DNA of 56,022 nt from a virus (lineage: Duplodnaviria > Heunggongvirae > Uroviricota > Caudoviricetes). The stretch is from the IMG/VR virus record IMGVR_UViG_2534681672_000003, positions 1 through 56,022 of that record; one strand, given 5' to 3'. Under the pieces are notes generated by a model, which saw only the letters and a program-made list of their open reading frames with translations, was not told where the DNA came from and did no database searches. The translations under genes were made by a program, and so were the position numbers. Shown here piece after piece: positions 19,214 to 42,058 of the stretch; position 1 is the stretch's first letter; every line of letters begins with the position of its first letter.

Positions 19214-19239
19214 ATCGCCAGTTTTACTGGCGACTTTTA
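19214..19239. terminator. hairpin plus T-run between the convergent cargo and Nu1-like genes
   Basis: TCGCCAG-TTTTA-CTGGCGA followed by CTTTT. Confidence 0.6.
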
Positions 19240-19289
19240 AGCAACAAAGAACCACCTAAGCACTCTTCCTACCTATGGTTTCATTTGTT

Positions 19290-20085: not shown

Positions 20086-20086
20086 A

Positions 20087-20470
20087 TCAACCAATCAGCT
20101 TATAGCGACCATCCCGTGCATTGCGGCGTACACGCTCAATCTTGAGGCATAGCGCCGCATCTGGCTTTTTTGGGACAGGTACGCGGCAATATTCAGAAGC
20201 GCGAGGAATATTATTTATCCAGTCGATCACTTCACTTAAATACCAGGCCTTACGCCCTTCCGTAACCTGCACACGCTCCGGGAACTCTCCACTAGCCTCA
20301 AGGTTTAGCAGTGTACGACGACTCAGGGTTGTAATTTCCATCACCTGATTCATATCAACAAGGCGCTCGCTTAAACACATTTTGTCAGCGATAGCTTTTA
20401 ATTCCTCTACAGCTGGATTCGGGTACATCATTTCGGCAATTGGCTTAAGGTCATTGTAATCATTCTGCAT
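20087..20470 (-). CDS. AlpA/MerR-superfamily HTH protein with N- and C-terminal extensions
   Basis: 127-aa ORF. The core MEITTLSRRTLLNLEASGEFPERVQVTEGRKAWYLSEVIDWI fits the AlpA-family pattern. A GGGGGA ribosome-binding site is present, and the gene is tightly coupled behind the D-like gene. Confidence 0.6.
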   Translation of the reverse strand: MQNDYNDLKPIAEMMYPNPAVEELKAIADKMCLSERLVDMNQVMEITTLSRRTLLNLEASGEFPERVQVTEGRKAWYLSEVIDWINNIPRASEYCRVPVPKKPDAALCLKIERVRRNARDGRYKLIG

Positions 20471-20481
20471 TGTATCCCCCT

Positions 20482-20823
20482 TTACACACGAGCCAGCGGC
20501 TGAACAGAAATACCTGAGCCAACAAACGCTGCAACCTTTACTGACAGTTCTTTAACAGACTCAGGCCAGTTCAGAGCATCAACATTTAAGACACCTGTCT
20601 TATAGACCTGAGCCTGTGTTTTTTTCGCGGTGTCGATTTGTACAGCGGAAACATAAACCGCTTTACCTACGCTCGAACCATCCCATACCACCAGTGCACC
20701 TGTTGCATCTTCCTGCATCAGTGGCGTAAATGCAGGAATTACCCCTTTATTAGCTGAAAATATCCCCAGCGTAGTCACCAGTGCTTCAGTGCCAGCCATG
20801 AGTTCAGTGTAATGAGTAGCCAT
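20482..20823 (-). CDS. head decoration protein, lambda gpD-like
   Basis: 113-aa ORF. It aligns by eye with gpD at TPLM..LV.WDG..., YK.G..., WPE... and AF.G..IS. Confidence 0.65.
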   Translation of the reverse strand: MATHYTELMAGTEALVTTLGIFSANKGVIPAFTPLMQEDATGALVVWDGSSVGKAVYVSAVQIDTAKKTQAQVYKTGVLNVDALNWPESVKELSVKVAAFVGSGISVQPLARV

Positions 20824-20832
20824 TGCTCCCCC

Positions 20833-21873
20833 TTAGCCAATGCGAACGGTAACAAAACGATTGATGCGGGCCGGTATTGGCTGTGGTGCTGAATGTGTCT
20901 GCACATATTCAATAGCCGGATCACCAGGCACAATATAGTTTTTCGGTGCAAGTTCGGCTTTAGTCAGCCCCATTCGGATTAGCTCCGGATCCTGAATACC
21001 GCCATAGGCGACAATCCCCTGAAGAGCCGTATTGCCAAGCACCATCAAATCAGGATCAAGGAAATGTTTTTCTGTTCCGTCCTCGTCGGTATAACGCCCG
21101 CTGTAAACAACAATCGCAACATCGCCCATATACCCTTTAAAACTCACCGAATCACCAAGGTCTTTAAGGGCCGTTTCCAGTTCGGAATTAGAACCACGAC
21201 GGGTATCCAAAGCCTCTTTTATCGCTCTGAATGAACGGTATTTCTTCCATACATTACCACCCATAATGATGATATTAGTGACGCCCTCACTAAATTCTGC
21301 GTAGCTCTCAATATCATCATTTGGATCAAAAGTTTCTTTATCCTTACCTGACCACTCAGTACCGCCAGACTGAGTGATGATATTTTGTGGTTTTATATTC
21401 CAGTCCAGCTCATAACGTTCAATACCATCGCCCTCAATGATATTTTTCCCCGTTGTGATAGCCTGAACAGCAAGCCATTCAATACGTGCACGAATAGCTT
21501 TAGCCTGATTTACAATCGCCTGTTTAACTTTAATATTACGCGCCCCAAAAGCATTGTATTGCTCAGGTGACACACCAGCAGGGCGCACAGCTAACTTATT
21601 TGGATCAATGCTGCTTTTCGGCTTCATATAACCTGGACGAATTGTTTTTGATTCGTATCCCTCATCTCGTGAAACTTTACTGCCCACCATAGGAGAGCAA
21701 AACGCCGCGATCGGGATATTTGGATCGTCGATCGTATCAAGAATAATGTCTCTCGATTCAAACATTACCGAGCGAGTGAAAAACAAACTGGTAAACAACG
21801 CATTTAATTTTTTTTGTACATCTACAGCATTAACCACCTGTACAAGCTGAGTAGGCGAATATAAATCAACCAT
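20833..21873 (-). CDS. major capsid protein, lambda gpE-like (satellite-encoded)
   Basis: 346 aa from MVDLYSPTQLVQVV. Conserved blocks are QSGGTEWS..DK.T.DP.DDIE.YA and LDTRRGSNSELETA.KDLG..VS.KG..GDVAIVVYSG. AAGAGG lies upstream of the ATG at 21873. Confidence 0.85.
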   Translation of the reverse strand: MVDLYSPTQLVQVVNAVDVQKKLNALFTSLFFTRSVMFESRDIILDTIDDPNIPIAAFCSPMVGSKVSRDEGYESKTIRPGYMKPKSSIDPNKLAVRPAGVSPEQYNAFGARNIKVKQAIVNQAKAIRARIEWLAVQAITTGKNIIEGDGIERYELDWNIKPQNIITQSGGTEWSGKDKETFDPNDDIESYAEFSEGVTNIIIMGGNVWKKYRSFRAIKEALDTRRGSNSELETALKDLGDSVSFKGYMGDVAIVVYSGRYTDEDGTEKHFLDPDLMVLGNTALQGIVAYGGIQDPELIRMGLTKAELAPKNYIVPGDPAIEYVQTHSAPQPIPARINRFVTVRIG

Positions 21874-22069
21874 ACGCATCCTCTTTGCATTCATTAAAAA
21901 TAATTGTGGATATATGCTATCACCGATATTTGTCATGCGAACACATGCAACCGAGTGCAATGTTGTATAAAGTTTTGGGGTGACAACTTCAGTGCGGACA
22001 ATTAGTGTTAATATCTTCACTCCCTTTGGTCGGGATTTATGTAGCATGCAGGAAAATTTATTTTTTCCG

Positions 22070-22790
22070 GCCTTTTTGTGCACAGAAAACCCCCAGCTAG
22101 GCTGGGGGTTCCGGAAAGCTTTCAGCTTTGAGCCAGTTATTAAAACCCCTTTTGATTTGTTAAAACACTTTGCGGTCTGGCAACTGCAAGTGTCAAACAA
22201 GAAATCAAAAGGGGGTCCCAATGGGGAACGAAAAGAGCTTAGCGCACACCCGATGGAACTGTAAATATCACATAGTTTTTGCGCCAAAATACCGAAGACA
22301 GGTGTTCTACAGAGAGAAGCGTAGAGCAATAGGCAGTATTTTGAGAAAGCTGTGTGAGTGGAAAAGCGTACGGATTCTGGAAGCTGAATGCTGTGCAGAT
22401 CATATCCATATGCTTGTGGAGATCCCGCCCAAAATGAGCGTATCCGGGTTTATGGGATATCTGAAAGGGAAAAGCAGTCTGATGCTTTACGAGCAGTTTG
22501 GTGATTTGAAATTCAAATACAGGAACAGGGAGTTCTGGTGCAGAGGGTACTACGTCGATACAGTGGGTAAGAACACGGCGAAGATACAGGATTACATAAA
22601 GCACCAGCTTGAAGAGGATAAAATGGGAGAGCAGTTATCGATTCCCTATCCGGGCAGCCCGTTTACGGGCCGTAAGTAACGAAGTTGGATGCAAATGTCA
22701 GATCGTGTGCGCCTGTTAGGGCGCGGCTGGTAAGAGAGCCTTATAGGCGCATTTGAAAAACCTCCGGCTATGCCGGAGGATATTTATTTT
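22070..22790 (+). mobile_element. IS200 (IS200/IS605 family) copy; ends approximate
   Basis: tnpA is flanked by the characteristic hairpins CCCCCAGCTAGGCTGGGGG (left) and CCTCCGGCTATGCCGGAGG (right). The size is about 0.7 kb. Confidence 0.7.
22221..22679 (+). CDS. tnpA: IS200 Y1 (HuH) transposase TnpA
   Basis: MGNEKSLAHTRWNCKYHIVFAPKYRRQVFY...HIHMLVEIPPKMSVSGFMGYLKGKSS... is the typical 152-aa IS200 TnpA. Confidence 0.92.
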   Translation: MGNEKSLAHTRWNCKYHIVFAPKYRRQVFYREKRRAIGSILRKLCEWKSVRILEAECCADHIHMLVEIPPKMSVSGFMGYLKGKSSLMLYEQFGDLKFKYRNREFWCRGYYVDTVGKNTAKIQDYIKHQLEEDKMGEQLSIPYPGSPFTGRK

Positions 22791-22801
22791 ATTGGCAATA
22801 T

Positions 22802-23251
22802 TTAAAACGGGATATCATCTCCCCATTGCTCATTATCTCCCACTGGTGGCTGGCTTCCTTGCTGATCTGCCTGTTGTTTTGCTCTGTTCAGTGCGTCAGT
22901 AGCCTGCCCCTGTTGGCCTTTATTGCCGCCCGGTCGCACCGATCGCGCACTGATTACGCTGTCTGCGATAACCTGCCAGCCCTGCCGCGTTTCGCCGTTC
23001 TGTCCAGTCCACTGGCTCATCTGCATGTTACCCGCCACGCTCAGGAGTTCGCCTTTGTGATGCTTTGCCAGCGCGTCGGCTTGTCTGCCAAACGCCAGGA
23101 CAGATAACCACATCGTCGCCTGACCGTCATCCGACTGACTGCAGGGCAGTGATACCGCCATACGCGCCAACGTCATGGGGGTGCCCTTGCTGGTCTGTTT
23201 TGTCTGCGGGTCGTCCACCGACCGCCCGTAAACTGATATTTGCGCCGTCAT
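22802..23251 (-). CDS. ssb: single-stranded DNA-binding protein
   Basis: 149-aa ORF with an OB-fold-like N-terminus and a Gly/Gln-rich linker. It ends with the canonical SSB tip ...DDIPF. Confidence 0.8.
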   Translation of the reverse strand: MTAQISVYGRSVDDPQTKQTSKGTPMTLARMAVSLPCSQSDDGQATMWLSVLAFGRQADALAKHHKGELLSVAGNMQMSQWTGQNGETRQGWQVIADSVISARSVRPGGNKGQQGQATDALNRAKQQADQQGSQPPVGDNEQWGDDIPF

Positions 23252-23493
23252 GCGGCCTGCTCTCCGGACTTAATATTGATTGTTGTCACTTCCTCCGCTT
23301 CAGCAATCTCCCGTTCGGTCAGAGTGGCAAAGTTTGCAGCCGCCGTTGTCATGAATGCGCTAATCAGTTCGGGATGTGCTTTCGCGTATCCTTCCCCGGC
23401 GTTGCGGTCGATGATTTTTATCGACACCCTTAACCAGTGTTCCGTCAAATCAAGGGCGTGCGATTGTGATTTTTTTGTGTGCTTCGCTGTCAT
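23248..23493 (-). CDS. hypothetical protein
   Basis: 81-aa ORF whose stop overlaps the ssb start by 4 nt. It lies directly downstream of the origin repeats. Confidence 0.5.
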   Translation of the reverse strand: MTAKHTKKSQSHALDLTEHWLRVSIKIIDRNAGEGYAKAHPELISAFMTTAAANFATLTEREIAEAEEVTTINIKSGEQAA

Positions 23494-23544
23494 AGGCTTT
23501 ATCTCACAGCAGTAAATTAAAATTTTTGCGTTTTAACCCTTCAC

Positions 23545-23767
23545 CTGTTCACCTTTTGATATTTTCTCTTTTAATTCATAATGTTAATGGGTGAACAGTT
23601 TCACAAAAACTATTCACCAACTGTTCACCACTGTTCACCCTTGAAGCTCAATAAACAATCAAAAAGGTGAACAGTGAATAGTTTGGTGAACAGTTCATAA
23701 ATAACTGTTCACCCTATAATATACTGATATAAAAGATATTTATGACAGGGTGAACAGTGGTGAACAG
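23545..23767. repeat. satellite replication origin: iterons GGTGAACAG / CTGTTCACC with AT-rich spacers
   Basis: The perfect 9-mer occurs 5 times forward (23590, 23666, 23685, 23749, 23759) and 4 times inverted (23545, 23621, 23631, 23705), plus degenerate copies. The region sits just after the replication gene. Confidence 0.8.
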
Positions 23768-23780
23768 TTATTCCATAAGT

Positions 23781-25601
23781 TTAATTTTTGCTATCGTCAT
23801 TAGTGACCGATACACATGATGGCATCCAGTCTTCTGATTCCTCCGTCAGGGTCACGTTTGAACGCAAACCGTGCTTCGTTTTCCGTTTCATATACTCCCT
23901 GCCATATTCCGCCATTGCCCCCGGCATATCTTTACCGAAGCGCGTCAGTGTTACAGGTTTACCAAACCCATGTGCCCTCATATAAGCCAGATAGGCATGA
24001 TAGAGATACCTGCGTGGGCTGAATGGCACAATTTCAGCATTACCCACTAACAGGCCATCACACATTACCGATGCCATGAGATAACCGCAGAAGTCCACCA
24101 GCGAATCCCCCTCTCGCTTTATCGCCAGTGCTTCTTCAGATTTCTGCTGCTCATATAACAGGCGTCTGGCTTCGTCCTGATCAGCAAACCTTGTAAGCAG
24201 ATGACGAATCACTACCGCCAGCTCACCTTCTATTTTTTCCGCCAGCATCGAATCGCGTTCGTTCTCCGGTACAACTTCCGAAAAATTGAATATCACCCGA
24301 CGACGTGAGATCCCCCCGCTGCGGTCACTGAATGACATGGCGTTATTGTTAACCGCCAGCACTACTGCCGGAATACGCGTTGAATAGGGGGCTTTGTGTT
24401 TCGGGTCAATTGCCACCTTGTCACCGCCTGTAATGGCCTTAATCCCTGCCCCATCACCAGCGTAGCGGGTCATATCCGGCATGATAATCAGCGAAAAGCC
24501 AACCACTAACGCACGTTCCCTTGCATCTTCCAGCGCCTTCATGCTTGCTGATACTGTATTAGCCTTACCCGCCAGCATGGTGCAAATCTCCGCCATCACA
24601 CTTTTACCACTTCCCCCCGGCCCTGTTACCTCAATGAATAACTGCCAGTCGTACCGGTTCGCCAGCACCATGAATAATGCCGCCAGTACGCGATCTGCCT
24701 TGCGGTCATTCTCAGCCACCGAACGGCGCAACCACTTCCAGAAATTCGGCGCATGTGTTGCCAGCGTTTCCCCCTCTGCTGGTGGGCTGAAAGGTAATTC
24801 ACTGGCAATTAACAACCAGTCGTTTTTGTTATGCTCCCGAAAGTTACCAGTTCTGGTATCAAATACCCCGTTACTGAATCCAATCAGGTTACGGGCTGTA
24901 TTCCCCATTACAGGCAAACTTAACTTCATGGTATCTACCGCCGATTTAATAGCGTTCTGCGAATAGCTGATCTCCGCATCAATGAAAATCTGCGCCATAG
25001 CACGCTGTAACTCTTTATCCTGAACCGGCTCCCATACAACGCCGTTGTAATGATGAACGGTGTCAGAGTCGGCATTGATTGCCAGTTCGCCGCCGTAATG
25101 TGCAAGGAGAACTTCACCGCGCTGGCTGGCCCCCATCTGATTCAACGCCAAAGATGAAGCACGCTCGTCATTTTTGCGCTCAGCCTTCTTCACTGGCAGT
25201 TCAATCACCAGACTTTCCCCATGCTCCGCTTCAGCTTTTAGGCCGACAAGGCGCGGAGTCCAGTCTTCAGGCTCTCGATCAACAAAGCTACGGTAACAAC
25301 GTGCTTCCTTTACGCCTGCAATAGCAAGTAATGTCGCAACCTTCGTCAGACTTTTCTCTGCAATCTTTCCGGCACGATAAACACGCACATAATGACGGCC
25401 TTCATCGATAATTTGCATATCATCCAGGTTTTCCAGTTGTTCCGTACCCAGAATGACTGGTGGTGTATCATCTGCTGCAATATGCTTACCTGCCCATTCA
25501 TTCCATTCTTTTGCATGGCTCCAGGCATCACTGCCAGCAAAAATGATGACTTCCGTCATTTTGTCGCGCGGTTGGTATTTTAAGTTCGGAGCACGTTTCA
25601 T
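23781..25601 (-). CDS. replication protein: D5/P4-alpha-type SF3 helicase (primase-helicase family)
   Basis: 606-aa ORF with the Walker A motif GPGGSGKS. The surrounding pattern is typical of the phage/plasmid primase P4-family C-terminal domain. The ATG overlaps the upstream stop (ATGA). Confidence 0.8.
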   Translation of the reverse strand: MKRAPNLKYQPRDKMTEVIIFAGSDAWSHAKEWNEWAGKHIAADDTPPVILGTEQLENLDDMQIIDEGRHYVRVYRAGKIAEKSLTKVATLLAIAGVKEARCYRSFVDREPEDWTPRLVGLKAEAEHGESLVIELPVKKAERKNDERASSLALNQMGASQRGEVLLAHYGGELAINADSDTVHHYNGVVWEPVQDKELQRAMAQIFIDAEISYSQNAIKSAVDTMKLSLPVMGNTARNLIGFSNGVFDTRTGNFREHNKNDWLLIASELPFSPPAEGETLATHAPNFWKWLRRSVAENDRKADRVLAALFMVLANRYDWQLFIEVTGPGGSGKSVMAEICTMLAGKANTVSASMKALEDARERALVVGFSLIIMPDMTRYAGDGAGIKAITGGDKVAIDPKHKAPYSTRIPAVVLAVNNNAMSFSDRSGGISRRRVIFNFSEVVPENERDSMLAEKIEGELAVVIRHLLTRFADQDEARRLLYEQQKSEEALAIKREGDSLVDFCGYLMASVMCDGLLVGNAEIVPFSPRRYLYHAYLAYMRAHGFGKPVTLTRFGKDMPGAMAEYGREYMKRKTKHGLRSNVTLTEESEDWMPSCVSVTNDDSKN

Positions 25602-25885
25602 TTGTTACCTCCGGCAACTAACATTGCCCGAATTTTACGGATATAGCCTGCGGCACGCCTCTGATTATCTGTCTTGCAATTTTTTACCAGAATGAAATCT
25701 CTTTCGAACTGCTGACGCGGCATAACACATTCAAAATCATAACCATCACGCAAATAAGAGACACGACGATCATCAACCGAAATAATCTTTACCCGATAGC
25801 CATAGCTGTCTTTGAAAATATCCCCAAGGCTGATTTTTGAATGAGTTTGACCGCTGGCAATAAAGCCAGAAAATTTATTTTTCAT
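25598..25885 (-). CDS. DUF4222-like small protein
   Basis: 95 aa. The pattern Y.V.II..D..RV.Y.R.G...ECVM.R..F..DF..V matches the family signature by recall. Confidence 0.5.
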   Translation of the reverse strand: MKNKFSGFIASGQTHSKISLGDIFKDSYGYRVKIISVDDRRVSYLRDGYDFECVMPRQQFERDFILVKNCKTDNQRRAAGYIRKIRAMLVAGGNK

Positions 25886-25888
25886 TTT

Positions 25889-26113
25889 TTATTCTCCGGT
25901 ATAGCTCTGGTCGTGTATTTTTATAGCTTCATCCAGCTCTTTGATGACAGGATCAAGTAACGTAATTAACGCTCCAGCTAAATTAGCATCCCGTTCATCG
26001 TGTTCCGCATTTGTTGTCCCATCAAGCCAGGTTGATAAGATTTCTCGCATATTTTTGCCACAAACGAGCGCGTTTTCAGCATGTGTCAGCACTTTAAAAT
26101 AAAGATCATTCAT
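25889..26113 (-). CDS. hypothetical protein
   Basis: 74-aa ORF in the leftward operon. No family was recognised. Confidence 0.45.
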   Translation of the reverse strand: MNDLYFKVLTHAENALVCGKNMREILSTWLDGTTNAEHDERDANLAGALITLLDPVIKELDEAIKIHDQSYTGE

Positions 26114-26471
26114 GGCACACCTCCTGACGAATACGGGCGGCGAATATCATCACGTAGCCAGTTGGGAATTGCTGGCGGGCTTCCTGTTCGCTGGCGGCCT
26201 CGATGTGTATTACGCGTGGTTGTGCGGTGCTCAGGGCGATAAAACGCCAGATGAAATTGTTTTCGCATTTCTGAATAAACAGCGTGTTTTCTTCACGCCC
26301 TTTCCAGAAAGCCGCAGTATAGCCCATCTCCTTAACCATCTTGCGGGCATCAACCAGCGTGTCAGCGGCAACATGTACCGTAGTTGCTCCATCTGCCATG
26401 CGGTCGTGGTGTAGTGCCAGAAAGGTGTATATAAATTTAGGGTGAGTTTGGGTATGCTGTGTTCCAGCCAT
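26106..26471 (-). CDS. Icd-like (host cell division inhibitor-like) protein
   Basis: Start set at MAGTQHTQTHPKF with a GAGG ribosome-binding site. FIWRFIALSTAQPRVIHIEAASEQEARQQFPTGYVMIFAARI fits the Icd-like pattern, and a weaker first repeat lies upstream. Confidence 0.55.
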   Translation of the reverse strand: MAGTQHTQTHPKFIYTFLALHHDRMADGATTVHVAADTLVDARKMVKEMGYTAAFWKGREENTLFIQKCENNFIWRFIALSTAQPRVIHIEAASEQEARQQFPTGYVMIFAARIRQEVCHE

Positions 26472-26557
26472 AATCGTTACCTCGTTTAACGGTTTGGTTA
26501 GAAGCCCGGTTAGTGTTCGCGCACTGCCGGGTTTCGTCGTTTTTATGAATCGATCAT

Positions 26558-26660
26558 TGTGAGATACATAGCGACCATGATGTGAGATATACATTATAAT
26601 GTGGTGATATACATTGCAAGTGTTTTTATATCTCACTTTTGTGTATAGTGATATACACAT
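26558..26660. promoter_or_regulatory. divergent control region with repeated operator-like motif GTGA(G/T)ATA(TA)CAT
   Basis: Copies lie at about 26558, 26580, 26600 and 26646, with an inverted copy at 26627. The region sits between the leftward icd-like operon and the rightward RHH-like gene. Confidence 0.6.
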
Positions 26661-26679
26661 AACAAATTGGTGATTAACT

Positions 26680-26982
26680 ATGTCTGTATACAAAAATGCA
26701 AAATCGCAAATGACAACGATCAGGGTTCCCCACGATGTTATGGAGGGCATGGAATCCGTAAAACTGGACGGCGAAAGCAACGCCGGATTCATAGTAACCG
26801 CCATGCGCGGTGAGATCGCCCGCCGCCAGGCAGAAGGAAGCGGAGAAAATCCCCTCGTGTCTTCACTGGATGCCTTAGCTAAGGTCGAACAAATCGGCAT
26901 CAAGGCAGCGGAGGAAATCGGGCAACTCGTAGCCGTCGCTCGTGAAGAACTCCAGCGGCGTAAAGCCAAAGAATCTGAATAA
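26680..26982 (+). CDS. putative ribbon-helix-helix (CopG/Arc-like) regulator
   Basis: TTIRVPHDVMEGMESV...NAGFIVTAMRGEIARR fits a strand-helix-helix layout. The true start may be the internal M at MTTIRVP. Confidence 0.45.
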   Translation: MSVYKNAKSQMTTIRVPHDVMEGMESVKLDGESNAGFIVTAMRGEIARRQAEGSGENPLVSSLDALAKVEQIGIKAAEEIGQLVAVAREELQRRKAKESE

Positions 26983-27332
26983 TTACTATCAGCGCCGTGA
27001 TGTGAGTAACTACGGCGCATTGCTATGTAAATACTGGCAATAAACAGAAAAGGTAGTTCTACTCCGAATAATTTTATCTGACACTACTCCTGAACTAACA
27101 TGCGCTTATCTTACAGGATATAAATATAGATCCATAAAATCACGATTAAATAAAGCCGCTCCAAACATAAACCACACCCAACGCTTAACAAGATAGCAAC
27201 AAACAGATAAATAACTTGCAGAAATATTTATCGCAAGGATTATCATTATTAATTACAAATCACTTTACCAAGTCATTCCCCTCTCTTATCATAAAGAGAA
27301 AGTAATAAATAAGTTAAGGGAGTTAGAATACT

Positions 27333-27869
27333 ATGAATCTAAAAAAAATAGCCACAAACATAAAAAACAAGATAATAGAAACATTCAATAAACTTATATT
27401 AGAGGCATCTAAAACCCCCACACAAGATGAAATTAAAATACTTGAGAGAAGAAGTAAAAAGTTTAATTACTCCTTTTTCTCATACGCAGTCACAGGAGCC
27501 ATAATGGTTTTTTGCTCTCAACCATTAATAAAATACGCAAACCCAATGCTTATTTTATTGAGTGGTCTGTTACTGTCTATCATCATTATCCTTCTCAGAA
27601 TGATTTATATTTCACAAGCGAATGCATCATGGACAACCAAAAAACGTTCACATGTACTAGTTCATTTTCTTTCTGCATGTTTCATAGCGTCAACATTGAC
27701 GTTGTTATATCAGGCTTACGATAATAACATCACACACAAATTGTACTGTAAAAATATACAACAACTTATTGAAAAAAGGATAGAAACAGAAAAAAATATC
27801 AGCATATTCAGTGGGATGCAATGCACCCCGGCATATGATTACTCTTTATTTGGATTTAATCTCTTATAA
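27333..27869 (+). CDS. cargo membrane protein (about 3 predicted TM helices)
   Basis: 178-aa ORF in a very AT-rich block. The hydrophobic stretches are AVTGAIMVFCSQPL, LILLSGLLLSIIIILL and LVHFLSACFIASTLTLL. Confidence 0.55.
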   Translation: MNLKKIATNIKNKIIETFNKLILEASKTPTQDEIKILERRSKKFNYSFFSYAVTGAIMVFCSQPLIKYANPMLILLSGLLLSIIIILLRMIYISQANASWTTKKRSHVLVHFLSACFIASTLTLLYQAYDNNITHKLYCKNIQQLIEKRIETEKNISIFSGMQCTPAYDYSLFGFNLL

Positions 27870-27938
27870 AGAATGTTATTACTGATTTGAGTGCAAATTC
27901 TCAAATCAGTAATTCATAATATTTTATTCTGAGATAAT

Positions 27939-28166
27939 TTAAACTACCCACTCACCTCGAATCCATGCCTGCACTTCTGAAAGACGATATGCAACAGCAG
28001 TGGAGCCAATCTTGATCCGCTTAGGAAATTTCCCTTCCTTCTCCAGCTTCCAGCGTGTGCTGTTCGCAAGAGTGGTTAGCTCCCGACATTCTTTCTCACG
28101 GATCATACGATCGATGTTAGGAATGTACTCCAAACCCTTTTTATCAACAATCGCCATTTTTTTCAT
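27939..28166 (-). CDS. alpA: AlpA-family transcriptional regulator/excisionase
   Basis: 75 aa. IREKECRELTTLANSTRWKLEKEGKFPKRIKIGSTAVAYRLSEVQAWI is a typical Phage_AlpA HTH. The gene lies directly downstream of int. Confidence 0.8.
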   Translation of the reverse strand: MKKMAIVDKKGLEYIPNIDRMIREKECRELTTLANSTRWKLEKEGKFPKRIKIGSTAVAYRLSEVQAWIRGEWVV

Positions 28167-28167
28167 G

Positions 28168-29403
28168 TTAACCAGCCTTTTGTTTGAGGATTATCACTTT
28201 TGAATCAGCACCTGCGATGCTATTGAGATATGTAGTCCAGAGTTCCAGAGCATCCAGTTTTTTAGCCATAAACTTACTCCGGTTGTAAACACCTGCCACG
28301 CCAGGTAGCGCATGGCCTAACAGTTGTTCTACTACATAAAATTCAACACCGAGATCACTTAGATGAGTAGATAGCGTTCTTCTAAGGTCGTGTAGTGACC
28401 ATTGTTTTTCATGGCCCAAACGTTTACCGATTTTCCCCCCAATCTTGCTTACGCTTTCTCTAATTCGCAGACTTCCCAGCACATAACCAGTATGTTTTGT
28501 CTCTTCGTGAACATCCGTTACCCACTGTCGTAGAATTTCAGGTACTGGTCTGACGATTTCAACACCAGTTTTTGAGTGATCTTTTGGTACCGTCCAAACC
28601 CAACTTTCGAGATCCCATTCGCTCCATTCAGATAATCGGGCTTCACTCATTCGACATCCAAATACTGTACAAAGCACAAACATTTTTCGCGTGTATTCAG
28701 ACATTAGTTTTAAATCAGGCTCGACAAAAATTGCCTTCCAGAGCTGGCCCAGTTCGGCTTCATCCAGAACCCGATCCCGCTTACCTGCAATCTGCCCCAC
28801 ATCACTCATGCGCAAATCCTTTAAAGCATCACATGTCGCGTACTGGCGTACCCGACAAAAACGAAGAGCTAATTTAGTGTCAGAAAAAACATACGCCGCC
28901 ATAACTGGTGCATTACGTTTAATTCGGTCAAAACAGTCCAGCCATTCATATAGGTGAGTGTCATTTACAGGCAAATGACCGATATAGGGAAAGATATGCT
29001 TTCGAAATCTGCCAAGCGTTACAGCATGAGTTTTACGACGCACCTTACAGTAATTTTCATACCAGTAATTTAGTGCATCCTCCACTGTGACCGGCTTTAA
29101 GCGTTCTTCAGCCTGAATCTTAATCTGGATACGCGGATCACGTTTGTCAGCCAACCAACCACGGCACTCGTCGCGCTTTTCCCTTGCCTGTTTGAGTGAC
29201 ATATCAGGATATTTACCCAACGTTAGCCAGACCGGAGCAGCCCGGCCACCTGCTAACCTGTAGAAGAAAACAAAGCTCACAGCCCCCTTGGTACTCACAC
29301 GAATAGAAAGCCCCTTTCCATCAGCAATGGTGATCTGCTTTTCTCTGGGTTTCCCCAGATATCCTTTAAGCGCTTTGTCGCTCAGTTTGTTCTCGCCAGC
29401 CAT
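28168..29403 (-). CDS. int: tyrosine integrase, P4-type (DUF4102 arm-binding N-terminus)
   Basis: Start at MAGENKLSDKALKGYLGK. The N-terminus has GKGLSIRVSTKGAVSFVFFYRL, and the catalytic region has HDLRRT...LGHALPGVAGVYNR. The gene abuts the right att copy. Confidence 0.9.
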   Translation of the reverse strand: MAGENKLSDKALKGYLGKPREKQITIADGKGLSIRVSTKGAVSFVFFYRLAGGRAAPVWLTLGKYPDMSLKQAREKRDECRGWLADKRDPRIQIKIQAEERLKPVTVEDALNYWYENYCKVRRKTHAVTLGRFRKHIFPYIGHLPVNDTHLYEWLDCFDRIKRNAPVMAAYVFSDTKLALRFCRVRQYATCDALKDLRMSDVGQIAGKRDRVLDEAELGQLWKAIFVEPDLKLMSEYTRKMFVLCTVFGCRMSEARLSEWSEWDLESWVWTVPKDHSKTGVEIVRPVPEILRQWVTDVHEETKHTGYVLGSLRIRESVSKIGGKIGKRLGHEKQWSLHDLRRTLSTHLSDLGVEFYVVEQLLGHALPGVAGVYNRSKFMAKKLDALELWTTYLNSIAGADSKVIILKQKAG

Positions 29404-29566
29404 TTTTAGCCCCAAAAAGCAATACAAGCTGCAATACAGAGATGATTGCAACACACAGATAACGAGGAAAATTCAGTGAAAGCGCCAGATAAACTTATTC
29501 TTTATTATCAAAAGATTAAGTGTAAAAACCAGCAACTACACGAAAGCCTCAGAAAGCCATGCTAAG

Positions 29567-29576
29567 TGCTTCGGCT
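29567..29576. repeat. right copy of the 10-bp direct repeat (att core) TGCTTCGGCT
   Basis: Identical to 18134-18143. E homology resumes here. Confidence 0.9.
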
Positions 29577-29811
29577 TGACATATCCCGGCGTAAATTCAG
29601 AGGTGGAGCCGCCACGGGAACGGATAACCTCACCGGAAACAATCGGCGAAACGTACAGCGCCATGTTTACAAGTCCCGGAATTTGTGAGAGATAGACTTT
29701 CTCCGTAGTGAAGGGATAGCTCTCACGGAAAAAGAGACGCAGAAACAGCGGATCAAACTTAAATTTCTGCTCATTTGCCGCCAGCAGCTGGGCGGTTGTG
29801 TACATCGACAT
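29567..29811 (-). pseudogene. E: major capsid protein E, 5' part (codons 1-82)
   Basis: MSMYTTAQLLAANEQKFKFDPLFLRLFFRESYPF...EFTPGYVKPKH matches the lambda gpE N-terminus. The frame then runs into satellite DNA (LAWLSEAFV*). Confidence 0.95.
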
Positions 29812-30208: not shown

Positions 30209-30604
30209 TTACACTGGTGTGTTCAGCAAATCGTTAACGGCATCAGATGCCGGGTTACCTGCCGCCAGCGGTGTCGGTGCCCCCTGCATCAGACGATCCA
30301 GCGCAGTGTCACTGCGCGCCTGTGCACTCTGTGGTGCTGCGGCCAGAATGCGGCGGGCCGTTTCCACGGTCATACCGGGGGTTTCTGCCAGCACGCGGGC
30401 CTGTTCTTCGCGTCCGTGAGCCTCCTCACAATTGAGGATCCCCATAATGCGGCTGTTTTCTGCCGCAACCGCTGCGGTGATCTGTGCGTTCACGTCCGGC
30501 TGCGCCGCGCTGGCGTTCTCGCCCTCTGTCGCTGACACCACGTCAGTAACGTCAGCCTGCAAAGCAGTGGCTGAAACAGTTGTTGATTGAGTCTCTTTGG
30601 TCAT
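30209..30604 (-). CDS. Nu3: scaffold protein Nu3 (internal start in the C frame)
   Basis: MTKETQSTTVSATALQADV...NDLLNTPV, 131 aa as in lambda. It lies downstream of, and is untouched by, the duplication. Confidence 0.8.
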   Translation of the reverse strand: MTKETQSTTVSATALQADVTDVVSATEGENASAAQPDVNAQITAAVAAENSRIMGILNCEEAHGREEQARVLAETPGMTVETARRILAAAPQSAQARSDTALDRLMQGAPTPLAAGNPASDAVNDLLNTPV

Positions 30605-30863
30605 TCGCCCTCCTGAGAGACGGGATTTACGTGCATCCAGTGCCTCACGCATAACGGTGATCGCATCGGTGCTGTTGACAAGTTCATCAGCCAGTCCGGC
30701 ATCAATGGCCTCCTGACCGCTGTACACTGCAGCCTCGGTATCCAGCACAGCCTGCACGGACAGGCCGGTATATGCCGACACCTTCTGCGCAAACATCCGG
30801 CGGGTTGCATCCATCCGGGACTGCAGTGTCTCCCGGACGTCATCCGGAAGATGGCTGTAGGGG

Positions 30864-31009
30864 TTGCCATCCACCTTATGGCTGCCGCTGTAAATCAGCG
30901 TGATTTCCACGCCCTGTTTCTCCAGCGCAGCACCGTTTGCCATCCACCTTATGGCTGCCGCTGTAAATCAGCGTGATTTCCACGCCCTGTTTCTCCAGCG
31001 CAGCACCGT
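30864..31009. repeat. perfect tandem duplication, 2 x 73 bp, inside gene C
   Basis: TTGCCATCCACCTTATGGCTGCCGCTGTAAATCAGCGTGATTTCCACGCCCTGTTTCTCCAGCGCAGCACCGT occurs at 30864-30936 and again at 30937-31009. Confidence 0.95.
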
Positions 31010-31581
31010 AATTACTGTGAGCCATCATGACGCCGATGGAGCCTGTCCGGGCGGTCTGCGTGACCAGACGCCGGGAGGCGGCACTGGCAAGCAACTGACC
31101 TGCACTGCAGTTCATGTCGTTGGCAAGCGTCCATACCGGTTTTATGTCACGCACACGGGCGATGATGTCAGCGCAGTCAAATGCCCCCGCCACCATCCCG
31201 CCGGGCGTGTCCATATCGAGCAGAATGCCGTCCACCATCGGATCGCTGGCAGCCTGTTGCAGACGGGCGATAATGCCGTTGTAACCGGTCATCCCCGAGT
31301 ACGGCTGCAGCGCCCGCGTCCGGCTGACCAGCGTGCCGGACACCGGCAGCACGGCGATGCCGTTCATGACCTGATAACTGCGGGCCTGTCGTGGTCCGTC
31401 ATCATCACCGGATAATGCCAGCGTCGCGAGTGCCTCCTGGGCAGTCAGGCTGTCGCCGGACACCGCATCCGTCAGGCGGCTGATCCCAAGCTGGCCTGCA
31501 AGCGCACAAAAGAAAACCCGCGCATAGGCGGGTTCAAGCATCAGCGGCTCATTAAAGGCCATACTGGCAATATGCGGGAGA

Positions 31582-35282
<3,701 letters not shown>

Positions 35283-35308
<26 letters not shown>

Positions 35309-35828
35309 TCAGCAACCCCGGTATCAGTTCATCCAGCGCGGCTGCTTTGTTCATGGCTTTGATGATATCCCGTTTCAGGAAATCAACATGTCGGTTTTCC
35401 AGTTCCGGAAAACGCCGCTGCACCGACAGGGGGATCCCGTCGAGAATACTGGCAATTTCACCTGCGATCCGCGACAACACGAAAGTACAGAATGCGGTTT
35501 CCACCACTTCAGCGGAGTCTCTGGCATTCTTCAGTTCCTGTGCGTCGGCCTGCGCACGCGTAAGTCGATGGCGTTCGTACTCAATAGTCCCTGGCTGGAG
35601 ATCTGCCTCGCTGGACTGCCGCAGTTCTTCAACCTCCCGGCGCAGCTTTTCGTTCTCAATTTCAGCATCCCTTTCGGCATACCATTTTATAACGGCGGCA
35701 GAGTCATAAAGCACCTCATTACCCTTGCCACCGCCTCGCAGAACGGGCATTCCCTGTTCCTGCCAGTTCTGAATGGTACGGATACTCGCACCGAAAATGT
35801 CAGCCAGCTGCTTTTTGTTGACTTCCAT
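35283..35828 (-). CDS. Nu1: terminase small subunit Nu1
   Basis: 181-aa ORF, MEVNKKQLADIFGASIRTIQNWQEQGMPVLRGGGKGNEVLYDS... Confidence 0.95.
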
Positions 35829-36060
35829 TGTTCATTCCACGGCCAAAAACAGAGAAAGGAAACGACAAAGGCCCAAAAGTTCGTTTTCAGCACCTGTCGT
35901 TTCCTTTCTTTTCAGGGGGTATTTTAAATAAAAACATTAAGTTACGACGAAGAAGAACGGAAACGCCTTAAACCGGAAAATTTTCATAAATAGCGAAAAC
36001 CCGCGAGGTCGCCGCCCCGTAACCTGTCGGATCGCCGGAAAGGACCCGTTGGCCGTTCTG
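35829..36060 (-). other. cos: resident cos site (cosB, cosN, cosQ); cosN 12-mer at 36006-36017
   Basis: The minus strand reads ...CGACAGGTTACG GGGCGGCGACCT CGCGGGTTTTCGCTATTTATGAAAATTTTCCGG..., which is the lambda cohesive-end sequence. Confidence 0.9.
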
Positions 36061-36327: not shown

Positions 36328-36496
36328 TGGACAGATAGAGCGGTTTATTTCATTCCACAGGATTCTGAGTGCCCCCCCCCTCCTCCAATAGGCTGAGCAT
36401 CCACCTATATAGTTTTAATTTTCATCAATCCATTTAACTATCGTTTAATTGTTGTCACATAGGATTCTGCCGTTTTTAACAATGCAGGATAATAAG

Positions 36497-36790
36497 ATGA
36501 AAAAAATGTTGTTTTCTGCCGCTCTGGCAATGCTTATTACAGGATGTGCTCAACAGACGTTTACTGTTGGAAACAAACCGACAGCAGTAACACCAAAGGA
36601 AACCATCACCCATCATTTCTTCGTTTCGGGAATTGGACAGGAGAAAACTGTTGATGCAGCCAAAATTTGTGGCGGCGCAGAAAATGTTGTTAAAACAGAA
36701 ACCCAGCAAACATTCGTAAATGGATTTCTCGGTTTTATTACTTTAGGCATTTATACTCCGCTGGAAGCGCGTGTGTATTGCTCACAATAA
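36497..36790 (+). CDS. bor: Bor serum-resistance lipoprotein
   Basis: MKKMLFSAALAMLITGCAQQTFTVGNKPTAV... The lipobox is LITGC, and the 97 aa match lambda Bor. Confidence 0.92.
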   Translation: MKKMLFSAALAMLITGCAQQTFTVGNKPTAVTPKETITHHFFVSGIGQEKTVDAAKICGGAENVVKTETQQTFVNGFLGFITLGIYTPLEARVYCSQ

Positions 36791-36821
36791 TTGCATGAGT
36801 TGCCCATCGATATGGGCAGCT

Positions 36822-37283
36822 CTATCTGCACTGCTCATTAATATACTTCTGGGTTCCTTCCAGTTGTTTTTGCATAGTGATCAGCCTCTCTCTGAGGGTG
36901 AAATAATCCCGTTCAGCGGTGTCTGCCAGTCGGGGGGAGGCTGCATTATCCACGCCGGAGGCGGTGGTGGCTTCACGCACTGACTGACAGACTGCTTTGA
37001 TGTGCAACCGACGACGACCAGCGGCAACATCATCACGCAGAGCATCATTTTCAGCTTTCGCATTAGCTAACTCCTTCGTGTATTTTTCATCCAGTGCAGC
37101 AACATCACGCTGGCGCATCTGCATGTCAGTAATTGCCGCGTTCGCCAGCTTCAGTTCTCTGGCATTTTTGTCGCGCTGGGCTTTGTAGGTAATGGCGTTA
37201 TCACGGTAATGATTAACAGCCCATGACAGGCAGACGATGATGCAGATAACCAGAGCGGAGATAATCGCGGTTACTCTGTTCAT
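36822..37283 (-). CDS. Rz: spanin inner-membrane subunit Rz
   Basis: Start at [36 protein letters not shown]. The ATGA overlaps the R stop. Confidence 0.9.
36881..37063 (-). CDS. Rz1: spanin outer-membrane lipoprotein Rz1 (embedded in Rz, +1 frame)
   Basis: [60 protein letters not shown]. It has a lipobox and is proline-rich. Confidence 0.88.
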
Positions 37284-37777
37284 TGCTGACCCCACAAACA
37301 GATTTCACGCTCAATCTCACGACGAGTCATGAGACCTTTCCATTGCTTACCGCCAGCATATGTCCAGCGACGTAGCTGATCACATGCGCCTTTGATATCG
37401 CCCTGGTTTATTTTGCGAAGAAGCGTCGATGTTCTGAAATTGCCAGCGCCCACGTTGTAAACGAACGAGTAAAGAGCGCCGCGCGTTGTTTCCGGTATAT
37501 CAACTTTTATGTACGGGTTAATTTGTCTGGCGACCGTGGCAAGGTCTTTATTCAGGAGGGCTTTGCATTCTGCTTTGGTATACGTTTTACCGAGCATGAT
37601 GTCTTTTCCTGTATGCCCGTGACATACAGTCCATACACCAACAATATCTTTGTATGGTATGTAGCTGACACCCTCCAGACCATCGTTACCACTTGAGCCA
37701 GTGATTAACACTGATGCTATAGCAATTGCTCCGCCACCAATAGCAGCAGCAACGGCTTTTCGTAATGATGGAGGCAT
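37280..37777 (-). CDS. R: SAR endolysin (phage 21 R-type, T4-lysozyme family)
   Basis: The N-terminal Gly/Ala-rich signal-anchor-release segment is [20 protein letters not shown]. The E...D...T triad context is [22 protein letters not shown]. Confidence 0.88.
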
Positions 37778-37992
37778 TATTCACCTCTCGCAGCCTTGCG
37801 CTTATCTTCTTTAATCTTGAAATAAAGGTTTGTCAGGTACGTCAGCAAGCCAAATACCAAGCTACCCAGCACACCTATTGCTGCCCACTGTGAGGGCGTG
37901 ACTTTATCGAGCAGCTGTAAAAACCAGTAGCCAGCACTGCCTGCGGAGGTGCCGTAGGCAATGCCCGTTGTTAACTTATCCATGGATTTCAT
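37777..37992 (-). CDS. S: pinholin (phage 21 S-type, class II holin) with dual-start motif
   Basis: [71 protein letters not shown]. Confidence 0.88.
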
Positions 37993-38180
37993 AGCCTCAC
38001 CTCCGCAAATAACGGATGGTGTACACGGTTCGGAACGAAGAGGAAAGGTATAGAAGTTACATTAGCGTAAGGCTTGAACATCTATTCAAAAAGAAAAACG
38101 CCAGCGATTATTCTGGCGTAGCTGAAAGCATCATACAATTATTAAATACGAAAATTACAAAATCATTAAAACGCATCACG

Positions 38181-38921
38181 TTACATCATGTCTTTTTCTA
38201 AAAAAAGTCTTGATGAATATTGATGGGGAGGAACACCAAAATATCTTCTGAAAACACTTACAAAATATGACGTGTTTTCATAACCGCATATCTCAGCAAC
38301 TTTTCCAACAGAATATAAATTGTAGCTTAATAACCTTTCCGCCATCACCATTCGCTCTTCAAGAATTAACTTACTAAATGATAAGCCTTCGTGCTTTAAT
38401 TTTCTTTTTAACAGACTTTCACTCAGATACAGTCTTGAAGATATATCACAAAGTCTCCATGCTGCAGATATATCCGTGTGAATAATAGCCTTAACTTTAC
38501 TTCCTAAACTATTAAGACATCCAAATAAAAAACTTTGCACTATTTTCTCTGAAGATAAGATAGCAAGACATGCAAGTGATATTTGATTTCTAACAAAATC
38601 CACAGTTCTGCCATCACAATTCAAGCATGCAATCAAGTTCTTTAACAATGAAAAATCTTCACATTCCACCATCAAGTATGCCGGATAAAACCTTCTTACA
38701 GAAAAAGGTGAGAGTGTGTTGCTTTTAAAGAAATCATTAACTGTTTTCTCTTCAACATCTACGATCATTACATGATCTATATTTGATGAAAAAAAATCTT
38801 TTAAATTGTAATCAATGAGAACAGCACTTCCTTTTTTAAACAAAATATCTTCTTTACCAATTCGGACATCAAACGAGTTCAACACCAAAATGATAGAACA
38901 TATGTATGGCATATTATCCAC
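38181..38921 (-). CDS. AraC-family transcriptional regulator (prophage moron)
   Basis: 246-aa ORF. The C-terminal HTH_18 pattern is ...LSESLLKRKLKHEGLSFSKLILEERMVMAERLL...VAEICGYENTSYFVSVFRRYFGVPP. The block is AT-rich. Confidence 0.8.
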   Translation of the reverse strand: MDNMPYICSIILVLNSFDVRIGKEDILFKKGSAVLIDYNLKDFFSSNIDHVMIVDVEEKTVNDFFKSNTLSPFSVRRFYPAYLMVECEDFSLLKNLIACLNCDGRTVDFVRNQISLACLAILSSEKIVQSFLFGCLNSLGSKVKAIIHTDISAAWRLCDISSRLYLSESLLKRKLKHEGLSFSKLILEERMVMAERLLSYNLYSVGKVAEICGYENTSYFVSVFRRYFGVPPHQYSSRLFLEKDMM

Positions 38922-39263
38922 CTGATATCATTGGGGTTACACCAGGTAAGTATAGGTGGAAAATCAATATTCGCCAGTTCAACAATAAGGAAAATCTCAT
39001 TGCATCACAAGTATAAAATTATGTATTTAACTCACAAAGACAAATTATTAAACCAATCTGTTATATTATATATAGCTGCGTGGAATCATAATATTATATA
39101 TTTTGACTGGCATGTTTACCAACTTTAAGTTGCATCTCAATGGTTTCTTCAGCGTAAACAGAGTTTTTATACAAACTGACACTCTGGGTATCATAGTGTA
39201 GTTTTTACGATTGTAAATATCTTGCATGCAGGAACTCATCCTTTTGGATGATATCGCATACAA

Positions 39264-40223
39264 TTAATTTACCATCAGTCTTAGAGCCAGTTCGTCCGGA
39301 TAGGGAGCGAAGTAATTCTGTGTAAGCAAGTAATCATTAGGATACTCACCCAGATAATGCTTCAGCAGAGTCAACGGCGCAAGAAGAGGTAATGTGCCAG
39401 AACGATAGTTAAGTATAACCTCGCTCAACTCTTTACGCTGGCGTGTACTTAAGTAGTTACTAAAATACCCCTGTATATGCATCAGCACATTCGTGTGATT
39501 TTTACGTGATGCAGGTTTTCTGAGAATCGCCATCAGCTTATCACGATACACCTCAAAGTATGATTCAAGGTCCGCCCACTCGTGTATTGCAGCCACAAAT
39601 GGTCCCATATCTTTATAGCCTGCCTGACTATGCGCCAACAACTGAAGCTTATAACGACTATGAAAAGCTAATAACTCTCTTCTTGATAATTTCTCCTTGT
39701 AAAGGTGATTGAGCTCATGCAAAGCAAAAACTCTTTCAACAAAATTCTCACGAAGCACTGGATCATGTAATCGCCCATCCTCTTCAACCGGTAGCCAGGA
39801 AAACTTTTCCATCAAAGTGCTCGTAAATAGTCCCACTCCATCTTTACGACCTCGATTACCATTTTCATCATAGACACGCACGCGCTCCATGCCACAGCTG
39901 GGAGATTTAGCACAAACCACAAACCCCGATACATCCTTTAATTTGTCCATATAAGAACGACTAAACTCTGTCATTCTCTCTGTCACATCCTCATTCTGGT
40001 CGTGGCTGAAACACATCCGTATATTTCCTTGCGTCGAGCGCACAAGACGTAGAGCAGGACGCGGAACTGGCAGCCCTATAGCCATTTCCGGACATACTGG
40101 TCTGAATGTTACCCATTCCACTAATTTGTCCATTAAAAAGTCAGCTCTTTTGTGACCACCATCAAAACGAACAGCAGAGCCGGCCAAACAACCGCTGATT
40201 CCAATCACAGGTTTTTTTATCAT
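39264..40223 (-). CDS. YbgA-family protein (DUF523 + DUF1722)
   Basis: 319-aa ORF. The N-terminus GISGCLAGSAVRFDGGHK is DUF523-like, and the C-terminal half follows the DUF1722-like pattern. Confidence 0.65.
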   Translation of the reverse strand: MIKKPVIGISGCLAGSAVRFDGGHKRADFLMDKLVEWVTFRPVCPEMAIGLPVPRPALRLVRSTQGNIRMCFSHDQNEDVTERMTEFSRSYMDKLKDVSGFVVCAKSPSCGMERVRVYDENGNRGRKDGVGLFTSTLMEKFSWLPVEEDGRLHDPVLRENFVERVFALHELNHLYKEKLSRRELLAFHSRYKLQLLAHSQAGYKDMGPFVAAIHEWADLESYFEVYRDKLMAILRKPASRKNHTNVLMHIQGYFSNYLSTRQRKELSEVILNYRSGTLPLLAPLTLLKHYLGEYPNDYLLTQNYFAPYPDELALRLMVN

Positions 40224-40415
40224 ATTCTCCCCCTTGACTAATTCATTAACACATAAACTGTGTAGTGCACGGAATAAATTGCCTTTCTGGCGTCATCACT
40301 GACAATTTTTCTGTTATAGACTATTCCTAATATAGTATGAAAGTTCTTTAAGTGATCGGTCGTAATCATCTATCTTTCATACTTACTCTCAACTATCAAA
40401 AGTACAGGATTTATT

Positions 40416-40940
40416 ATGAAGTTATGGCCTGTGTTGACTGGCATTGCACTCTCTTTCACTCTTATAGCATGTAAGGCCCCGACACCACCTAAAGGTGTGC
40501 AGCCGATTACAAATTTTGACGCCAACCGCTACCTCGGAAAATGGTATGAAATAGCTCGCCTCGAGAACCGGTTCGAACGTGGTCTGGAACAGGTCAGCGC
40601 TACCTATGGAAAACGGAACGACGGAGGGATTCGTGTACTTAACCGTGGATACGATCCAACGAAAAATAAATGGAGCGAGAGCGAAGGTAAAGCATACTTT
40701 ACTGGAGATACTAAAACTGCAGCGTTGAAGGTTTCGTTTTTTGGCCCCTTCTATGGTGGCTATAATGTAATCAAACTGGATGATGAGTATAAGTATGCTC
40801 TTGTCAGTGGTCCGAACAGAGAATACCTATGGATTCTGGCAAGGACCCCAACTATTCCAGATAAAGTAAAAGCAGACTATGTGCGAACCGCTCAAAAGTT
40901 GGGATTCAATGTCAATGAATTATTATGGGTTAAACAATAA
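40416..40940 (+). CDS. blc: bacterial lipocalin Blc-like outer-membrane lipoprotein
   Basis: 174-aa ORF with lipobox LIAC. The lipocalin signature is FDANRYLGKWYEIARLENRFERG. Confidence 0.85.
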   Translation: MKLWPVLTGIALSFTLIACKAPTPPKGVQPITNFDANRYLGKWYEIARLENRFERGLEQVSATYGKRNDGGIRVLNRGYDPTKNKWSESEGKAYFTGDTKTAALKVSFFGPFYGGYNVIKLDDEYKYALVSGPNREYLWILARTPTIPDKVKADYVRTAQKLGFNVNELLWVKQ

Positions 40941-40967
40941 AATCCCTACCCGAAATAATACTTATTA

Positions 40968-40996
40968 GAAAAAAACCAGCCTTTGGGGAGGCTGGC
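40968..40996 (-). terminator. rho-independent terminator downstream of Q (tR'-like)
   Basis: The minus strand reads CCAGCCTCCCCAAAGGCTGG followed by TTTTTTT. It lies about 100 nt after the Q stop, where PR'/qut/tR' are expected. Confidence 0.65.
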
Positions 40997-41095
40997 TAAA
41001 TCAGGAAACAAGCTGTTATATGATAATAACTACGTTGCGATTCCAACATTTAAAATGTTAGACTAATGAGAATCAGACAGCAACTTTTCCTTTAA

Positions 41096-41473
41096 TTATT
41101 TCGAACAATCAGCATCCATCTCCAATCGGAGATCCAACACCATCAGCATACCCTCCACTACGCCCTCAGCTTTCTGGAGCATCCTGCCAACCCAACAATC
41201 AGATCGCCCATGCTTACGTGCAAGCGCCATAAAAGTCATGCCGCCGACATAATAGTCCACCAATAAATCATGCAAATCGCTGTTGTTCTTTTTCAGACGG
41301 GCCATGCACCCGCAAATGATCATCGCGTCATCGTCACAACATTGCGGGCGAGATTTTACTTTTGAAGGAATTAATCCCTTAAAACCGGCGGCAATGGACG
41401 ACCAGGTCACATCTTCATGATTATTAGCCGCCCACGCTCCCCAACGCTCAAGAACCATCTGAATATCACGCAT
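41096..41473 (-). CDS. quuD: late antiterminator Q (DLP12 QuuD / phage 82 type)
   Basis: [62 protein letters not shown]... matches QuuD by recall. Confidence 0.88.
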
Positions 41474-41558
41474 CAACTTACTCCACAAAACTCAGACCAG
41501 AACGCCAATTACAAGCAAAAATCAACAAAACAGTATTAGTTGATTGTTATCTCTGACT

Positions 41559-41696
41559 TCATACTCCTGCTCCTGTCAGTGTTTTGGCGTAATTCTTCAG
41601 TATTCGGTAATCGGTCAAAACAGAGCCGGGGAAACGATATAAGCGCAGACGCCCCCAGCGGTGGCGAAGAAGTTCTGCCATATTAAACTCAAACAT
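41559..41696 (-). CDS. ylcG: YlcG-like small protein
   Basis: [45 protein letters not shown], read by hand. It is below the ORF-track cutoff. Confidence 0.6.
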   Translation of the reverse strand: MFEFNMAELLRHRWGRLRLYRFPGSVLTDYRILKNYAKTLTGAGV

Positions 41697-42058
41697 CATT
41701 CATTCCCCATTTCGGTGATGGTCAGTTCCAGCCTCCCACCTTTGGTAACAGGCATCTTCACAACGCGGTAATCAACGACCTGAGCATCATCCAGCCAGAA
41801 ACCTGCTTTAGTGAGTGCGTCAAAAGCGGCTTTTTGCAGATTATCCAGGTCACGGCTACGGCAATCCGGCATGTGGCACTCAATGCGGATTTTCACAGGC
41901 ATAGCCAGGCCGATATCCAGCATTGCGTTTTTAATGATTCGGGCGACGTTATCGCGGTATGCCTGCCCCTCTGCACTGACGTGCGTGCGCCCGCGATTAT
42001 GGCGGTAATAGCGATTATTGCTCGGAGGCCAGGGTAATGTGATACTGTAGGTATTCAC
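41696..42058 (-). CDS. rusA: RusA Holliday-junction resolvase
   Basis: 120-aa [45 protein letters not shown]..., matching DLP12 RusA. Confidence 0.92.

Follow-up and report, generated by a model that had tools for sequence, protein, structure and literature searches.

A 73-bp tandem duplication splits the head maturation protease gene C of a lambdoid prophage and spares the nested scaffold gene Nu3

The stretch of viral DNA analysed here (56,022 nucleotides, hereafter the window) holds a lambdoid prophage that carries intD and lies between fimZ and ompT at the tRNA-Arg gene argU (the DLP12 locus). The prophage is full length, and it looks like an intact relative of the DLP12 remnant of E. coli K-12. 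The nearest complete genome, SCU-102 (NZ_CP051753.1), carries a near-identical prophage in which the remaining head and tail genes are annotated as intact. The SCU-102 annotation also places cargo and moron genes with names taken from DLP12 and lambda genes at 36400–46800, namely iss/bor, emrE, the ybcK recombinase, a lipocalin, a YbgA-family gene and an AraC-type regulator. Iterons of 19–23 bp lie at 48192–48281 in the helper replication gene (lambda-type ori). The features around the head genes C and E are listed in Table 1.

Table 1. Positions in the window of the features of gene C, the scaffold gene Nu3 and the capsid gene E with its embedded satellite.
Feature	Position	Strand	Remarks
Disrupted head maturation protease gene C	30209–31601	-	1393 nt; GTG start 31601 behind Shine-Dalgarno GAGGAGGAG
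N-terminal product ORF of C, 241 aa	30876–31601	-	221 native + 20 frameshifted residues; stop 30878–30876; identical to GenBank EIH13597.1
Possible C-terminal product ORF of C, 244 aa	30209–30943	-	MAN + native residues 199–439 (MANGAALEKQG...); expression putative
Gene-proximal 73-bp copy	30937–31009	-	the segment duplicated, nt 593–665 of native C; residues 198–221, including Lys218 (codon 30950–30948)
Gene-distal 73-bp copy	30864–30936	-	out of frame for the upstream ORF; native frame for the 244-aa ORF
Scaffold gene Nu3, 131 aa, intact	30209–30604	-	nested in the 3' third of C; in-frame internal ATG 30604
Helper-embedded PICI, 11capE type, 11,433 bp	18134–29576	-	inside the major capsid gene E, about codon 80
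10-bp att core TGCTTCGGCT	18134–18143 and 29567–29576		identical at both PICI ends
Doubled TGTATTGC arm motifs	18221–18240 and 29419–29438		~82 bp and ~133 bp from the cores
PICI integrase gene	28168–29403		same strand as E
5' part of helper E	29567–29811	-	
3' part of helper E	17353–18143	-	

Positions 30864–31009 within C were recognised by Tandem Repeats Finder as one array with a period of 73, 2.0 copies, 100% matches and 0 indels, and the two copies are identical by direct string comparison. This agrees with the preliminary description of the locus, which had reported a perfect 73-bp tandem duplication that frameshifts C. The array is the only one with 100% matches in the 56-kb window, and chance origin of a perfect 73-bp repeat is excluded (roughly 56,000 × 4^-73). 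The other tandem arrays in the window are imperfect (189-bp repeats in the tail-fibre gene, 3943–4377). The repeat is preceded by G and followed by A, and it cannot be rotated. The endpoints are therefore exact and unambiguous, with zero microhomology.

The duplication lengthens C, counted from the GTG at 31601 to the stop at 30209, to the 1393 nt already described, compared with 1320 nt in the single-copy allele. Outside the duplication, the gene matches the intact SCU-102 allele of 1320 nt (WP_021552139.1) at 100% identity. Because 73 = 3 × 24 + 1, the reading frame shifts after residue 221 and runs into a stop 20 codons on. The out-of-frame residues that end the N-terminal product are KRCCAGETGRGNHADLQRQP; they had been miscounted as 25. 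This product holds Ser166 (31106–31104) and Lys218 and only the first half of the S49 domain.

The second reading frame, the 244-aa ORF, exists as described and contains the second half of the S49 domain and the Nu3 region. Its ATG had been attributed to the duplication junction, but it is a pre-existing out-of-frame ATG within GTG-GAT-GGC (V219-D220-G221), 4 nt upstream of the junction, that the +1 shift puts in frame. The two products share 23 residues (199–221). Candidate start signals for the C-terminal ORF are AAGG 3 nt before the ATG and GGAG 9 nt before an alternative GTG at 30910, which yields 233 aa and is preferred by gene callers in other assemblies. The 233-aa product was likewise found in other assemblies, and the empty result of an exact look-up of the 244-aa ORF is explained by the use of this GTG start or of a 201-aa form by gene callers. 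A programmed ribosomal frameshift or other regulated recoding was considered as a rescue of C and rejected: neither a -1 slippery heptamer nor a homopolymer run of at least five is present between the first copy and the new stop, so that no such site is placed to restore the frame.

Nu3 is spared, as had been proposed. Its ATG is preceded by AGGAGG-GCGA, an arrangement that places an AGGAGG Shine-Dalgarno sequence 5 nt upstream, and it lies 260 nt downstream of the duplication; the ORF runs uninterrupted to 30209. The 201-aa form of Nu3 (start 30814; GenBank J02459/NC_001416) is also intact and has no Shine-Dalgarno sequence.

The duplication is real and is passed on within a small clone of E. 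coli, of which strain 97.0259 is a member. The exact 241-aa product of 97.0259 is present on 10 public contigs, and the junction was read in four assemblies (GCA_000194235.2, GCA_045954045.1, GCA_902841845.1 and GCA_045953735.1), which belong to at least three accession series (AEZL, CADGLN and accessions beginning with JBICF) deposited years apart. GCA_000194235.2 (a 575-kb contig) shows 100% identity to the window across 20.7 kb, and GCA_045954045.1 does so across 10.7 kb. GCA_902841845.1 differs from the window by 2 SNPs over 17.8 kb and is therefore a separate isolate. A 90-bp junction query (E≤1e-22) found no match in 5,426 complete E. coli genomes or in 50,697 phage records, and the exact junction 35-mer is absent from GTDB species representatives and JGI metagenomes. 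Draft assemblies thus supply all the support for the allele. It is rare, and given the carriers found, its absence from those scans is no sign of an artefact.

The ancestral state of the gene is single-copy. With a 501-bp query centred on the repeat region, matches were obtained in 3,233 E. coli records and 80 phage records, lambda included, and all matches listed span 428 bp, the single-copy length, rather than 501 bp. Across the whole window, SCU-102 differs by 6 SNPs and by having the unit once; its C is annotated as an intact S49 peptidase gene. This close relationship indicates that the duplication is recent and clonal, and the otherwise unchanged sequence of C in the window also argues for a recent event. 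A perfect head-to-tail copy of a unit that is single-copy both in the closest relatives and in the wider family identifies it as a spontaneous tandem duplication.

The protein encoded by the intact allele matches the Pfam profile Peptidase_S49 at residues 150–298 with 148.5 bits (gathering cut-off 24.9), and C of the window is a disrupted member of the lambda-type gpC (Peptidase S49) family. The break after residue 221 corresponds to position 74 of the 154 profile positions; the N-terminal product covers positions 3–74 and the C-terminal ORF positions 53–152. Intact gpC aligns with the solved B. subtilis SppA over residues 81–295 (E=1e-21). Ser166 is aligned to the nucleophile serine of SppA, and Lys218 to the position of Lys199, which is Ala in the 3RST/4KWB chains; these chains are presumably K199A mutants of SppA. 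Ser166 and Lys218 are taken here to be the catalytic residues of gpC on the basis of the SppA alignment and of the assignment reportedly made by Medina et al. 2010. The frameshift sets in 3 residues past Lys218, the predicted general base, and residues 222–295, about a third of the fold, are gone from the N-terminal product. A single uninterrupted frame from the protease domain to the Nu3-identical C-terminus is not present in the window.

C is essential in lambda, with an efficiency of plating of <2e-7 on knock-down and the entry 'E' in the literature column of the same study (PMC10695390). The initiator of head assembly consists of gpC together with Nu3 and the portal protein (PMC3224144). 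SCU-102 has one place only that matches the C segment, so no complementation from a close second copy is expected. Since no full-length gpC can be made, the most likely reading of C in the window is a null allele, in which an essential head-assembly gene has lost its protease function; a probability of about 0.85 is assigned to this reading. Formally, the N-terminal product might keep some residual activity, since the predicted catalytic residues are both retained, and fragment complementation by the overlapping N- and C-terminal products is conceivable.

The capsid gene E is also split, and the preliminary description had counted two head-gene lesions. The insertion in E is a helper-embedded PICI that encodes an integrase, AlpA, a primase and SSB and also contains an Icd-like gene, capsid and decoration genes of its own and a terS pseudogene; int, alpA and pri share the strand of E. 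The site, E:Phage_cap_E:80, has 201 reported instances with a 10-bp identity block (Tommasini, Mageeney & Williams 2023, PMC10111431). Doubled TGTATTGC motifs have been described as a pair, one copy about 81 bp and the other about 132 bp away from the attP centre (PMC10111431), and the window contains exactly two zero-mismatch matches to the doubled motif, both inside the PICI. Joining the E halves at the 10-bp core in silico restores a 341-aa E that is identical to lambda E at 337 of 341 residues, which bears out the earlier proposal that the split is reversible by site-specific excision. Precise excision of the PICI after helper induction has been seen experimentally, in the NRG857c model only (PMC10111431). 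A place covering at least 80% of a 5-kb query made up of the integrase, the E 5' part, D, C and the portal end was found in 170 of the 5,426 complete E. coli genomes. By its sequence features, the interrupted E corresponds to the normal arrangement of a described helper-embedded PICI and not to a lesion. The prophage would therefore carry one true head-gene lesion instead of two. The PICI itself carries neither a protease nor a scaffold gene, so the lesion in C should block the helper and the satellite alike.

Several further features of the satellite were observed. Positions 19531–20061 are a 531-bp copy, 94% identical, of the helper nu1 (small terminase) region at 35518–36048, and the SCU-102 annotation gives the satellite terS an internal stop; this suggests late-gene capture from a helper followed by decay. 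Iterons of 10 bp at 23608–23639 lie near the satellite primase gene. Three of the 6 SNPs that separate the window from SCU-102 (22367, 22448 and 22562) fall within 200 bp in the IS200C tnpA gene (22221–22679) of the satellite. This cluster could be due to gene conversion among IS200 copies or to the collapsed-repeat consensus of a short-read assembly. Several contigs that carry the duplication terminate near this IS200C copy.

Two alternative readings concern the origin of the repeat. The preliminary description had raised the concern that the repeat is an assembly or sequencing artefact and that the true genome is single-copy. The junction is indeed missing from all the complete genomes, phage records, species representatives and metagenomes scanned, and every carrier found is a draft assembly. 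Against this, the same junction or product recurs on the 10 contigs and in the slightly diverged isolate, and the repeat lies in unique sequence in the middle of contigs of up to 575 kb, away from contig ends and from repeat regions. The involvement of different projects and assemblers, together with the diverged isolate, renders an artefact very unlikely. The repeat could otherwise be the footprint of a mobile element, such as a helper-embedded PICI that once resided in C and left imprecisely. C cognates are indeed among the targets of helper-embedded PICI integrases (site C:CLP_protease:110; PMC10111431), and position 110 of the CLP_protease profile falls at about residues 187–192, near the start of the duplication at residue 198. 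That site, however, is defined on cognates under a different profile, excision by a tyrosine recombinase leaves no duplication, and the duplicated unit is pure C sequence, the same as in the single-copy allele. The 10-bp core and the TGTATTGC arm motif are both absent near 30864–31009, and an att-site scar was rejected as the origin on this ground. A mobile-element footprint is accordingly given very little credence.

Two other readings accept the duplication and differ over its effect. The preliminary description held that the S49 domain is uncoupled from the scaffold-like part that targets it, so that a complete and active protease would be made and merely not delivered to procapsids. The N-terminal product does keep Ser166 and Lys218 and lacks the entire Nu3-identical C-terminus. 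But the break lies inside the S49 domain, at less than half of its profile, the missing residues 222–295 align to the structured core of SppA, and the native sequence stops almost directly after the predicted general base. The protease fold is thus halved rather than uncoupled from the scaffold-like part, and delivery failure of an active enzyme is improbable. It is also improbable, and slightly more so, that the allele is functional, either because the overlapping halves reassemble as a split gpC or because the duplication and its collapse turn particle production off and on, as a reversible switch favoured by selection. The overlap at residues 199–221, the usable start signals of the second ORF, the persistence of the allele in several isolates with no further decay of C, and the known collapse of short tandem repeats in E. 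coli are all compatible with such a function. On the other side, the carriers are one small clone, and recurrent or independent origin has left no sign. C is annotated as an S49 peptidase in the 170 complete genomes that share the integrase-E architecture, and the junction occurs in none of them. Loss of C leaves host lysis unaffected and offers no obvious benefit, and a neutral lesion in a silent prophage would persist equally.

A null allele produced by an ordinary duplication remains the preferred reading, and the following history is proposed for it. The head-to-tail duplication would have arisen spontaneously and once in the C gene of the prophage at argU and would then have been inherited by the small clone that includes 97.0259, with Nu3, the other late genes and the E-embedded satellite unaltered. 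Upon induction, the composite would excise, replicate, release the satellite, restore E and lyse the cell. Head assembly or maturation would fail, and neither helper nor satellite particles would be formed. Escape would depend on the prior loss of one repeat copy by slippage or recombination, or on gpC supplied by another phage. Reversion of the allele itself would be expected only through rare collapse of the repeat. That C can be restored in this way had been proposed before, and it accords with the RecA-independent deletion of 101-bp tandem repeats, which is a standard assay in E. coli (PMC7145654). Since loss of C would not affect lysis after induction, the lesion should be neutral to the lysogen; neutrality fits the persistence of the allele across its carriers without more decay or reversion.

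How the duplication was formed is less clear. Microhomology, which would be expected at the endpoints for simple slippage, is zero, and a weak imperfect 16-bp palindrome, CACCGTAATTACTGTG, lies across one endpoint at 31005–31020. The palindrome is a possible lead for a template-switch origin. The missing microhomology bears on the mechanism of origin and not on the classification as a tandem duplication.

The allele is a lineage-specific duplication of an ordinary kind that frameshifts a prophage gene, and it represents no new mechanism or biological system; the composite context of a helper with an embedded PICI has been described since 2023. The main value of the analysis is a correction, in that there is one lesion and the protease fold is destroyed, and a resource. 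The 97.0259-type carriers and SCU-102 make up a natural near-isogenic pair that is 6 SNPs and the duplication apart in the region. The pair could show whether a helper-embedded PICI depends on the gpC of its helper, and it could serve to measure the collapse of a 73-bp chromosomal tandem repeat. If a reversible lock were true, collapse in a rare subpopulation would license particle production by both the lambdoid helper and the PICI.

The locus can be compared with four known systems. With the C/Nu3 genes of lambda it shares the order A-W-B-C/Nu3-D-E, a length of 439 aa in the single-copy allele, 98.8% DNA identity to lambda in the tested 501-bp segment, an S49 domain with Ser166/Lys218 at the positions of the SppA dyad, and a nested Nu3 with its own Shine-Dalgarno sequence. 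It differs in that C is split after residue 221 by the 73-bp duplication and in that the start in the window is GTG. With 11capE in prophage 50icd of E. coli NRG857c (PMC10111431), the window shares an 11.4-kb satellite in E at about codon 80 that is co-oriented with the late genes, as well as the 10-bp att block, the doubled TGTATTGC motifs, the int-alpA-pri order and a capsid gene of its own. The NRG857c composite resides at icd, whereas that of the window resides at argU (DLP12 locus, intD), and the helper C is frameshifted in the window clone, a lesion of a kind that PMC10111431 does not report. The 101-bp tetA repeats of pSTL57 (PMC7145654) are alike in that a short perfect repeat inactivates a gene and the loss of one copy restores it; those repeats are engineered, while the one in the window is natural, chromosomal, 73 bp long and in a silent prophage gene. 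DLP12 of E. coli K-12 shares the argU locus, the gene names intD, emrE, ybcK, essD, rrrD, rzpD and nohD, and the mutational inactivation of a resident lambdoid prophage. The prophage in the window differs in being full length and in carrying a single fresh lesion rather than large deletions.
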